Virus record (IMG/VR): IMGVR_UViG_3300031261_000045 | Origin: a virus | Length of the DNA stretch: 35,780 bases | Direction: 5' to 3' (one strand) | Shown: positions 20 through 2,064 of the stretch, piece after piece | Layout: each line of letters opens with the position of its first letter | How positions within the stretch are numbered: position 1 is the stretch's first letter | Position numbers and translations under genes: made by a program | The notes under the pieces: model-generated | Told to the model about the DNA's origin: nothing | Database searches by the model: none | The model's input: the letters and a program-made list of their open reading frames with translations, nothing else

Positions 20-369
20 GGGTGCAGTCACCCTATCGTTGGGTGGCTACGAAAACAGACAGGCAACCACTTCACCTCGATCTCGGTGCAGTCACCCTAT
101 CGTTGGGTGGCTACGAAAACTGGATTGAGGAAGTGGCTACGGAAAACAAAAAGCCATCGACGATCCGGGTGAGCGCGGGTGCAGTCACCCTATCGTTGGG
201 TGGCTACGAAAAATTGCGATAACCTGCCAAGAGCAGGTCGGTGCAGTCACCCCGTCGTTGGGTGGCTACGAAAACACCTTTGGCCAGTACGCCACCATCA
301 TCCTGGGTGCAGTCACCCTATCGTTGGGTGGCTACGAAAACGAAAGCCTGTGCAGGCCGCAACACCTGC
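20..369 (+). CRISPR. CRISPR-like array. Five near-identical 36-bp repeats (GGTGCAGTCACCCTATCGTTGGGTGGCTACGAAAAC) at 21-56, 85-120, 178-213, 240-275 and 306-341. Unique 26-30 bp spacers lie between them; spacer 2 carries a half-repeat remnant.
   Basis: Direct reading. Repeats differ by at most 2 nt. Spacers are 28, (10 + remnant + 31), 26, 30 and 28 nt with no similarity to each other. Each repeat can fold as an 8-bp stem (AGUCACCC/GGGUGGCU with one G-U pair) and a 7-nt loop, followed by an 8-nt ACGAAAAC tail. That is the architecture of Cas6-processed type I/III crRNA repeats. No cas genes are present in the window. Confidence 0.45.
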
Positions 370-2064
370 TGGTGCAGCGATGGAGCGGCAGTTTTTATTC
401 AGCCTCAGTCGCCGGACGCGGCTACAAAAAGAAAAGGGCTCAGCCGGTTTCCCAGCCTTGGGTGGCTACGAAAACTTTGGAGTCGCTGCCCGGCCGCTAC
501 GATCAGTCACCCTATAGCTACGAAAAAAGGCTACGAGAACTGCCATCGGATCGTGCCGTCGGCGTAGGCCGCTCCAAAAACCGATTTAGTTCGGGACGAT
601 TCAGTCACCCTATGGCTACGAAAAAAGTTTCGATCGGAGCTTCGGTCATGCCGTGCCGTTGGGTGGCTACGAAAACATCGCTGAATTCGCCGTGCAGACC
701 ACTCCCCCACAGTCATCCTGCCTTTTGGACGGCTACGACAAGAAATGGCAACGACTTGTTGCGTTCGAGGCTACGAAAACACCGCTCCGACAGCCCTCGC
801 AGGGGCTACGAAAAATGTGACGGATTGGCTCAGTCATCCTGTCTTTGGATGGCTGGATGGCTACGAAAACACCCATGCCTGAGGTGGAACAGCGCCTTTG
901 GATGGCTACGAAAACACGCGTTTCGGAGACCCTACAACCTTTGGTGTTACAAAACTACTTGCCCGACAGCCCTCGACAGTCTACATCGAGTGGCTACAGA
1001 AAACAGAAGCTGATGATCGACATGCTGGCCAAGGCTTCAGTCGCTCCGCCACTCGGACGGCTACAAAAAGAATGTTGCGTCTGGCTTGGTGGCTCCGAGA
1101 TTCAGTCACCCCACTCGGGACGGCTACGAAAACGGAAATCGATGATTGGTGGGTCGCTACAACAACACACAGGGTGGCATGGGTACGGTCCGGCATTCGG
1201 GCGGCTACGAAAATTTGCGTGGGCTACTAAAAGACCACTGATCCAGTTGGGTTCGGGTTCAGTCACTCTTGGGTGGCTACGAAAATCTTGTGTGGCGGGC
1301 GGGTTTAAAGTCACCTTTTTTGGGTAGCTATGGAAAGTGGGTGGCTACGAAAATATCAATCCCAGGTCGGCGAGCTAGCCGCTGAGTTCCAGTCACCCGA
1401 TGTTTCGGTGGCTACGAAAAATTCAACTGGCGCCCGTTGGGGGTATACCTGGGTGGCTACGAAAAACTTGCATGGCGAATGCATGGCGGTTCAGTCACCC
1501 GGCCATGTGGCTACGAAAATGAGAGTGCACGGCGCGAGAGCTTATTTGATGCATTGTATGAGAGCGACGATCGCGCTATGTCGTTCGTCGGCTATGAGAG
1601 AGAGTGGCTACGACAACATACAGAAATGGGCGGGGATTGAAGGCTACAAAAAGCTACGAAAAGGCTACGAAAAACGTGTGAGCCTTGCGAACCCCGAATG
1701 CCTCAGTTTCAGTCACCCTTCGGGTGGCTACGAAAAATGTATCCGAGGGCTGAGCGCAGGAGGCGCAGTCACCCTATCGTTGGGTGGCTAGGATGGCTAC
1801 GACAACCCCGTACATCACGGCCAGACGGGCATCATCGGCTCACTCACCCTACCATCCGGCGGCTACGACAAGGGCACGACTGCGGACGTCCTTTCAAGAG
1901 CCATGGGATGGCTACGAAAACAGAATCGTCACTCACGAGTAACTACACAGAAGTGCAGTCATCCCGTTGGCATGGCTATGAAAATGGAAATGGATACGAC
2001 CACAAGACCGACAGCAAGAGGACCGGCAAGCTGGTTTCAGTCACCCTTGGGCGGCTACGAAAAC
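370..2064 (+). repeat. Field of more than 35 degenerate derivatives of the same repeat (hairpin CAGTCAYCC-loop-GGRYGGCTAC plus ACGAAAAC/ACGACAAG tail, or bare GGCTACGAAAA half-sites) with irregular 15-110 bp spacing
   Basis: Occurrences of the core GGCTACGA(A/C)AA are at ~459, 504, 529, 610, 664, 730, 770, 805, 860, 903, 990, 1060, 1121, 1203, 1275, 1343, 1409, 1455, 1509, 1606, 1641-1675 (three tandem), 1725, 1795, 1860, 1910, 1975 and 2052. A near-perfect 29-nt copy of the canonical repeat reappears at 1762-1790. The ORF-track peptides in this span (recurring GGYEN / WVATKT / WLRK) are translations of the repeat and are not credible genes. Confidence 0.7.

Follow-up and report, generated by a model that had tools for sequence, protein, structure and literature searches.

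What is a CRISPR array doing in a phage genome that shows no cas gene around it, and why does this array, regular at one end, dissolve at the other into dozens of partial repeats? The question is raised by positions 20-2064 of IMG/VR virus record IMGVR_UViG_3300031261_000045, a stretch of 35,780 nt called the window hereafter. An initial annotation, made from the letters of the window alone, had offered four explanations: a phage-borne mini-array with a scrambled tail, solitary repeat units acting as RNA anti-CRISPRs, iterons or a centromere, or a repetitive extragenic palindromic (REP)-like family. The explanation that we find well supported is that of an orphan or cas-distant CRISPR array of the type IV-A family, borne by a jumbo phage and composed of a regular young part, a long eroded part and two satellites. 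We judge it likely that Cas6 and Cas5 proteins coming from elsewhere still recognise the hairpin and the tag of its RNA.

The DNA read amounts to about 57 kb, i.e. 11.3 kb upstream of the window, the window itself and 10 kb past its end, in a phage genome of at least 259 kb (one contig of the phage measures 259,007 bp). The same phage is present in many metagenomes, to judge by an adjoining 108-aa protein that is indexed in 66 collection blocks, and several of its assemblies end within the array.

A regular array with a leader

The window contains the following pieces of the regular part of the array (array A):

1-20, + strand: the 3' 20 nt of spacer 9; the full contigs L016, L017 and L018 read TGGGACGGAT/TATCCTCAGCATTGGTTTTG
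21-341, + strand: clean part of array A in the window; covariance-model scores of 38-40 bits, E about 3e-9

Between 21 and 341 the 36-nt repeat GGTGCAGTCACCCTATCGTTGGGTGGCTACGAAAAC occurs five times (21-56, 85-120, 178-213, 240-275 and 306-341), in agreement with the five clean units first described. It folds as had been reported, with a stem of 8 bp, one of which is a U-G pair, a loop of 7 nt and then an 8-nt handle, ACGAAAAC, which is called the tag below. The spacers in between are unrelated and measure 28 nt (57-84), 57 nt (121-177, including a degenerate half-site), 26 nt (214-239) and 30 nt (276-305).

The window opens inside the array. The initial annotation had pointed upstream for a leader and cas genes: a leader and 8-9 more perfect units are indeed found there in contigs of the same phage (L016, L017, L018, L040 and L042), and no cas gene is found in the 11.3 kb. 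In full, the array counts 13-14 clean 36-nt repeats, 12 of them identical, and mutually unrelated spacers of 30, 30, 30, 30, 27, 30, 21, 30, 30, 28, 57, 26 and 30 nt; its clean part thus has the near-identical repeats of 23-50 nt and the unique, near-constant spacers of a CRISPR array. A candidate sigma-70-like promoter (TTGATC-17-TAAAAT; L016 7196-7224) lies about 95 nt before the first repeat, in the leader, and the repeats worsen with distance from the leader, as in arrays that degenerate at their distal end.

Contigs that are unrelated at the protein level share the motif GTTCTTTGACAA, or its variants GCTCTTTGACAA and GTTCTTTCAAA, in their leaders or just before the first hairpin unit: at 7229-7239 of L016 and at 3254-3264 and 4090-4100 of L035, with similar sites at about 10551-10562 of L046 and about 13949-13959 of L048. 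It could be a shared -35 promoter element or the site of a regulator.

A field of worn units and two satellite clusters

The 11-nt core at the 3' end of the repeat (GGCTACGAAAA) was counted with at most one mismatch, dinucleotide-preserving shuffles serving as the null. The window holds 51 copies, against 0.41 ± 0.65 in the shuffles. Thirty-six of them lie on the + strand between 45 and 2063, in line with the more than 35 derivatives first described. All cores fall within one non-coding segment of about 5.5 kb, and none was found in 52 kb of flanks (L042 1-11265, window 4825-35780 and L055 10531-20531). A covariance model made from the hairpin alignment described below matches the window only at 21-4042 (+) and 4300-4725 (-). 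With some 60 copies in one segment, and with 11 kb upstream and 41 kb downstream free of them, the REP-like family is refuted as far as tested. The features downstream of the clean part are:

342-2064, + strand: degenerate field of array A; 31 further core copies with at most one mismatch
2082-2113, + strand: inverted repeat CCTCAAGCGG...CCGCTTGAGG (10 bp, 12-nt loop), directly after the last unit
3648-3676, + strand: sigma-70-like promoter match TTGACC-17-TACACT before cluster B (L016 11454-11482)
3766-4042, + strand: cluster B; 7 cores, mostly bare or in tandem (3956/3967); the units at 3834-3864 and 4011-4042 have hairpins
4300-4761, - strand: cluster C, inverted; 8 cores, 6 with hairpins, spaced by about 60 nt
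4793-4820, - strand: sigma-70-like promoter match TTGACC-16-TATAAC before cluster C, read from the minus strand

About two thirds of the field units keep a hairpin closed by AGYC...GGCU, and the remainder are bare or tandem cores (516/529 and 1642/1652/1663). The tandem triplet among them had been noticed in the initial annotation, as had the near-perfect repeat that reappears at 1765-1790. From core to core the spacing varies from 10 to 155 nt, and spacers of near-constant length are no longer found in 342-2064. About 8 of the 30 intervals still measure 63-69 nt, close to the original period of about 66 nt, and one unit of the clean part is itself truncated by a deletion that took the end of its spacer and the 5' half of its repeat. 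On account of this leftover period and of this visibly truncated unit, we take the field to be an eroded array, which started as an ordinary one. A coding reading of the field was discarded: the cores occur in all three frames (14, 14 and 8), and the gene callers leave the region empty in most contigs. The inverted repeat at 2082-2113, which has no U-tract, may mark the end of the array transcript or a processing site.

Clusters B and C, like the start of the array upstream of the window, had escaped the initial annotation. The promoter-like site of cluster B runs divergent from an ART-PolyVal gene (2829-3587, -). That of cluster C, which a promoter scan did not return because its -10 hexamer ends in C, is found just past the stop codon of a gene for an 840-aa protein, and the cluster lies upstream of a small gene (4008-4262, -). 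The promoter-like sites of array A and of the two clusters are consensus matches only. The total comes to 13-14 clean and about 48 worn units, in three putative transcription units.

Uneven erosion of the repeat and evidence for an RNA hairpin

Over the full locus there are 62 cores, 38 with an AGYC...GGCU-closed hairpin and 24 without. Erosion has not affected all parts of the repeat equally: over the 50 non-clean units, conservation is 84-100% at the 11 positions of the core, a value partly inflated by the fact that the units were located through the core itself, against 48-60% for the four stem bases just upstream and 38% for the last base of the tag. Counted from the 5' end, 35 of the 40 CAGYCA arms of the region precede a good core. 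Orphan cores thus abound, and 5' arms that lack a core are almost missing. Bare cores have been duplicated in tandem in the window (516/529, 1642/1652/1663 and 3956/3967) and, independently, in the viral contigs L035 and L004. Together, the uneven erosion, the excess of orphan cores and the recurrence of tandem cores suggest that the core itself is kept. Alternatively, the locus may descend from an array that was already heterogeneous, and the conserved core would then reflect past constraint only.

Two of the readings that compete with a working array draw on these data. The first is an RNA decoy or sponge, in which the roughly 50 worn units would be maintained for titrating the Cas6 and Cas5/Csf subunits of type IV-A systems that rival plasmids or huge phages bring into the cell. 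Expressed early from the three promoter-like sites, they would cause these systems to load nonsense RNAs and to fail in silencing the phage, and the clean array could re-arm the captured complexes against competitors of the phage or against host genes. The near-invariance, in 50 worn copies, of an 11-nt core that is invariant in the whole repeat family while all else drifts is a point in its favour, as are the bare cores, which far outnumber orphan 5' arms, and the core-only tandems of three unrelated viral contigs (window 1642-1673 and 3956-3977; L035 4125-4170; L004 2194-2291). It presumes that Cas proteins bind a core devoid of hairpin, and a decoy has no need for 13 perfect repeats, unique 30-nt spacers and a leader; the remnants of the 66-nt period, which betray an ordinary array at the start, are a further point against it. 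The second is a dead fossil: the lineage would have lost its type IV-A genes and the array would be decaying neutrally, with a core that reflects past constraint together with recent deletions and duplications. The irregular spacing and the truncated units speak for it; many orphan cores facing almost no orphan 5' arms, and the independent amplification of core tandems in three contigs, speak against it.

The hairpin was examined in an alignment of 19 distinct units taken from the window and from contigs L004, L035, L036 and L046. In this alignment 96.2% of the cells are paired, a share that drops to 23-47% once the partner is shifted by 1-3 columns; the units were selected for having hairpins, which biases the percentage upward and leaves the compensatory changes unaffected. 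Both partners have changed in four of the eight pairs (12 cells), and none of 500 shuffles reached the observed values. In cluster C, the stems differ by compensatory changes (CAUCC/GGAUG, CAUUC/GAAUG, CCAC/GUGG and CCAUCC/GGAUGG). At pair 3, ten units have C-G and nine have U-G, which on the opposite strand would become C-A. That the hairpin covaries in this way, strand-specific U-G pairs included, speaks for an element that acts as RNA, and from the written strand. The same orientation is supported by the cas operons found upstream of related arrays, by the leader and by the direction of degeneration.

These observations bear directly on the view that the locus acts as DNA, be it as iterons, a centromere, other protein-binding sites or a REP-like repeat that merely resembles CRISPR. 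A short, invariant and direct 11-mer, irregularly spaced, with tandems and one inverted cluster, does resemble an array of binding sites, and GTTCTTTGACAA recurs beside such clusters in two phages. Against this, the copies are strand-specific with a promoter-like site for each cluster, the covarying U-G pairs are possible on one strand only, the clean part has unique spacers of a constant 30 nt, the copies are confined to a single 5.5-kb segment out of 57 kb and the same core ends, on the 3' side, true CRISPR repeats located beside Cas6, Csf and DinG genes (see next section). We consider a DNA-level element very improbable, and the iteron or centromere option of the initial annotation is disfavoured with it.

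A repeat family associated with type IV-A-like operons

A scan of JGI metagenomes returned contig L036, which carries a clean array whose repeat, GTTCAGCCATCCCCTAAAATGGGTGGCTACGAAAAC, shares its last 16 nt with that of the window. This array lies directly downstream of a Cas6e-family gene (PF08798, 28.3 bits for a cut-off of 25; PADLOC Cas6e, 3e-8). The sole close homologue of the L036 Cas6 is encoded by L046, a contig of 554,748 bp, in an operon with the order Csf2/Cas7, Csf4/DinG, Csf3/Cas5, two further genes and Cas6, followed by an array of 16 repeats (PADLOC E-values: Csf2 1e-12, DinG 4e-48, Csf3 2e-15, Cas6 4e-12). The L046 repeat is CTCTCAGCCATTTAGAAAATAGATGGCTACGAAAAC, and the repeats of the array end in ...ATGGCTACGAAAAC. 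The Cas6 family is tiny: an exhaustive profile search among 1.84 billion proteins gave 45 representatives at E ≤ 1e-3. Six further members were looked up, one of them on a 993-bp contig that shows nothing else; the five others (L047, L048/L049, L051, L052/L053 and L054) display a similar gene order, with a DinG-type helicase recognised in three. The arrays downstream in L047, L048 and L052 have repeats that end in ACGAAAAC or ACGACAAC, exactly 8 nt past the hairpin; ACGACAAC is also present as a tag variant among the worn units of the window, and the repeat of L052, GGTGAGGCCACCCATCAATTGGGTGGCTACGACAAC, is almost identical to the window repeat. L036, L046 and L052 have in common with the window the end ...(G/A)TGGCTACGA(A/C)AAC and the base of the hairpin, so that the window repeat is of the kind found in arrays beside csf2, csf3, cas6 and dinG. 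All repeats of the family combine a hairpin with an 8-nt ACGA(A/C)AAC tag. From these shared repeats and tags beside csf operons, we conclude that the window array is a member of a type IV-A-like repeat family and not a complete type IV-A locus. An early comparison of the tag with type III-A tags was superseded by this link.

The likeness to type IV-A systems is of several kinds. In the related contigs the family repeat adjoins Csf2, Csf3, DinG and Cas6, and the Pfam lists of the fetched flanks contain neither cas1 nor cas2, as suits systems that usually have no adaptation module. In type IV-A1 the 5' tag bound by Cas5 is 8 nt long and Cas6 stays on the 3' hairpin (PMC11519345); the family hairpin likewise ends exactly 8 nt before the spacer, a geometry that would suit the same arrangement. 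There are differences too: no csf or dinG gene is seen in the window or in the rest of the 57 kb read, the family Cas6 is Cas6e-like, no large subunit (Csf1) was recognised, the repeats are 36 nt long and often heterogeneous, and the carriers of the Cas6e-like/Csf/DinG family include two contigs of about 550 kb, the window itself belonging to a jumbo phage instead of a conjugative plasmid.

The family also changes how the decay of the window array is to be judged. In L048 (13970-15220) and L052 (6720-7450), beside intact cas operons, nearly every repeat differs in its loop or inner stem, with small indels, while the base of the stem and the 8-nt tag are constant and the last units are strongly degenerate; in L047 the array ends with three units of differing stems. 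Sloppy repeats are thus a trait of the family and not a peculiarity of the window, which weakens the initial premise that normally only the last repeat of an array is degenerate. Since heterogeneous repeats are normal beside cas genes, part of the 'decay' is ordinary, a point against the decoy. It is also a point for the fossil: family arrays vary in stem and loop and not in the core, and the scrambling of such an array would give the pattern seen here with no selection at present. The window stands out by the number of its worn units, about 48, by how irregularly they are spaced, by cores that have no hairpin and by the absence of cas genes. The first of the initial options, a phage array with a scrambled tail, turns out to be essentially right, except that with 13-14 clean units and a leader it is no mini-array; and the array can be typed, because elsewhere its repeat family adjoins type IV-A-like cas operons.

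A Csf2 query in a word-index protein search, which is insensitive, matched only itself. In IMG/VR a flexible hairpin pattern gave mostly single chance matches, with clusters only in L004 and L034/L035. These clusters are small and irregular and consist of the hairpin followed by GGCTACGAAAAC (L004 2114-2414; L035 3265-3296, 3737-3762 (-) and 4104-4449). The fetched DNA of L004 and L035 contains no cas homologue, and the window phage has no protein homology with L004, L035 or L046-L049. The L035 unit at 3737-3762 (-) is located immediately 5' of the ribosome-binding site of a gene. A small conserved open reading frame (MSSEAA.KAW.TRR...GWVHPASR) directly follows the array in L046 (11841-12002) and L036 (1207-1280). 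The window also has small genes after array A (2195-2521) and after cluster C (4008-4262); these are unrelated.

Cas genes, protospacers and the present state of the array

Several results weigh against an array that is still read by Cas proteins, in addition to the two selection effects noted above for the conservation and pairing values. No cas gene was recognised with Pfam, PHROGs or PADLOC in the window, which agrees with the initial annotation, nor in the 11.3 kb upstream or the 10 kb beyond (-11 to +46 kb); the adjacency to cas genes that helps to define a CRISPR array is therefore missing from the DNA read. None of the family Cas6 proteins could be tied to this phage: the members looked up, a minority of the 45, are all elsewhere, none being on the 259,007-bp contig. 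With no nearby cas gene and no Cas6 tied to the phage, the array may be non-functional. The repeat has no match in Rfam, which covers CRISPR direct-repeat families, at E ≤ 10 in 1-4000, and no array with the repeat end of the window was found in the reference genomes of 185,579 species, where the scan returned only coding tandem repeats of GYEN type; the comparison with CRISPR repeats that the initial annotation had in view was negative in these two collections. Folding energy does not separate the strands (-13.6 versus -13.0 kcal/mol). About a third of the cores lack a usable hairpin, some of them being in tandem 10-17 nt apart, and a model of eroded guides leaves these unexplained.

The search for targets among phages and plasmids, also contemplated initially, was hardly more productive. 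No protospacer was found in INPHARED, nor in IMG/VR for spacers 1-3, nor in PLSDB beyond one borderline match (E = 0.1), nor in the related loci that were fetched, and the spacers have no self-target in 43 kb of the phage's own DNA, where the pseudo-spacers gave only chance matches of 13-15 nt. The field has no match in PLSDB plasmids. The borderline match pairs spacer 13 (276-305) with a dctA-like C4-dicarboxylate transporter gene of Methylobacterium bullatum: it is weak (27/30) and in frame (TFGQYATIIL versus SFAQYATIIL). It may hint at a host among the Hyphomicrobiales, the host order of the nearest cultured phage relatives, and at the targeting of a host gene, which is known for type IV-A and huge-phage arrays (PMC11656645; PMC7162821).

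When contigs from eight samples were compared, they differed only by deletions of whole units and by three point differences (two single-nucleotide polymorphisms and a 1-nt indel). The spacers at the leader end are identical in all contigs, which gives no sign of ongoing acquisition and adds to the evidence against an active array. As only losses of units are seen and the leader end is constant, the array shrinks by recombination, with no sign of current growth.

The lack of nearby cas genes, the lack of protospacers and samples that show unit deletions and no new leader-end spacers are all as the fossil would have it. On the other side, 12 clean repeats identical over 36 nt argue for recent activity, promoter-like sites have been kept before all three clusters, and the locus is fixed and nearly invariant in the eight samples. 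We hold the dead fossil to be quite unlikely.

How the array could be read

The reading that we prefer, a genuine array of a rare type IV-A-like family borne by huge phages and other mobile elements, whose hairpin and tag are still recognised, can be put as follows. The written strand would be transcribed early by the host RNA polymerase, given that the promoter-like sites are of sigma-70 type. Each repeat RNA would fold as the hairpin (C)AG(U/C)CA...UGGCU, and the family Cas6, of Cas6e fold, would cut at the 3' base of the hairpin, so that the next spacer would carry the 8-nt tag ACGAAAAC. On the model of type IV-A1, Cas5/Csf3 would then take up this tag. The 13-14 leader-proximal units, with their perfect repeats and mostly 30-nt spacers, would be the working guides. 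The Csf/DinG complex would be provided either by an unseen part of the phage genome or by a plasmid, prophage or phage residing in the same cell.

The field, like the satellite clusters, would consist of old units of the same kind, worn by deletions and small duplications. Type IV-A systems have no adaptation module, and for this reason their arrays would turn over slowly. Through erosion, the base of the stem and the tag (GGCUACGAAAA) have remained nearly invariant, so that the worn units are most likely still bound or cut by Cas proteins; they would yield short-guide or guide-less RNAs. The worn units may accordingly be residual short-guide RNAs, a decoy or a disused fossil.

Phages are known to use RNA mimics of CRISPR repeats. 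Racrs are single units that mimic the repeat of the host chromosome (PMC10651486), and Cracr arrays have 2-3 units with spacers that match cas promoters, of types V-A, I-B, I-C, I-E and I-F (bioRxiv 10.1101/2024.10.29.618823). The window locus resembles both in that it consists of phage-borne hairpins derived from repeats, with no cas gene, with promoter-like sites of its own and with the Cas-read part of the repeat kept. It differs by its roughly 50 units, its type IV family and the fact that no target and no matching host array in the reference genomes were found. That such RNAs are an established phage strategy (PMC10651486; bioRxiv 10.1101/2024.10.29.618823) strengthens the decoy reading introduced above, together with the three separate promoter-like sites that could ensure early expression of the clusters, the lack of any cas gene in 57 kb and the complete type IV-A operons present on other contigs with near-identical recognition elements. 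The lack of such an array in reference bacterial genomes would also fit a conflict between mobile elements. The solitary-unit option of the initial annotation draws some support from the conservation of the 11-nt core, which extends to hairpin-less and tandem copies. On the other hand, no spacer of the fetched type IV-A arrays matches this phage, and no Racr or Cracr array, with their one and 2-3 units, has been reported for type IV. All in all, we regard the decoy as a tentative alternative, somewhat unlikely.

A working array on a virus is not without parallels either. Huge phages with CRISPR arrays but without adaptation and/or interference genes are on record (Al-Shayeb et al. 2020, PMC7162821), and these arrays are compact, six repeats being the median. 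Like them, the window array is phage-borne and without cas1/cas2 or a local effector, and its weak dctA-like spacer recalls their host-targeting spacers; unlike them, it has 13-14 clean and about 48 worn units, and its repeat is found in no array of the reference genomes. The viral mini-CRISPR arrays involved in conflicts between viruses have 1-2 spacers matching related viruses (Medvedeva et al. 2019, summarised in PMC11656645). They are similar in that a virus-borne array would have to borrow the Cas proteins of another genome, and they differ in that the window array is long and no target was found for it.

The phage genome around the locus

The phage genome suspected initially is that of a jumbo myophage, as shown by a baseplate wedge that shares about 40% identity with its counterparts in Atu_ph07, Phosso and 121Q. 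The window also encodes a baseplate hub with a lysozyme domain, a virion structural protein of 3549 aa (8180-18829, -; phrog_10938, no Pfam domain) and a gp55-like late sigma factor (32038-34872, +; phrog_12791, 3e-62), which reaches 944 aa through intein/LAGLIDADG insertions. We considered whether the 3549-aa protein might be an N4-like virion RNA polymerase using hairpin promoters; this was rejected, since PHROGs assigns it to virion structure and the phage has a T4-type baseplate and a gp55-like sigma factor.

The gene for the 840-aa protein (4825-7347, -) separates the repeat clusters from the virion genes. Its product has the shoulder domain of the Major Vault Protein (PF11978, 65.8 bits) together with a weak Vault_3 repeat; this protein has no PHROG match, and a peptide-pattern search found no relatives in IMG/VR. 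An open reading frame on the + strand at 2868-3692 is spurious, the real gene being the ART-PolyVal gene at 2829-3587 (-). The phage has two such ADP-ribosyltransferase genes (window 2829-3587, - and L055 12980-13615), and another lies a few kb downstream of the L046 array (16536-17024). Past the window, L055 10001-20531 encodes a dual-specificity phosphatase, TauE, an SbcCD-like pair, a RyR-domain protein and a SAM lyase, and no cas gene; this set looks like a typical one for anti-defence or host takeover. A blastn search of 1-2200 against phage records gave no match and a scan for transfer RNA genes gave none. The idea of cyanobacterial HIP1 elements was dropped, as only 7 GCGATCGC sites are present.

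Implications

Type IV-A systems are usually viewed as a weapon of plasmids, and phage arrays as short. The window array, with about 60 units and no cas gene in 57 kb, ranks among the longest arrays reported for phages. Spacers and hairpins are gone from its old units, and the 11 nt that Cas proteins read are still there; the interest of the locus is in this selective retention of the Cas-recognition core, in its scale and in the rare type IV-A variant that it exposes. Worn units that are active would constitute the first RNA decoy, or the first guide bank, for type IV systems, and would also illustrate how an array ages when it has no adaptation module. If the decoy is true, it would amount to a Racr-type anti-CRISPR scaled about fifty-fold and aimed at conflicts between mobile elements instead of host immunity. 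The small Cas6e-like/Csf/DinG family that tolerates sloppy repeats may matter as much, and it gives a direct experimental handle.

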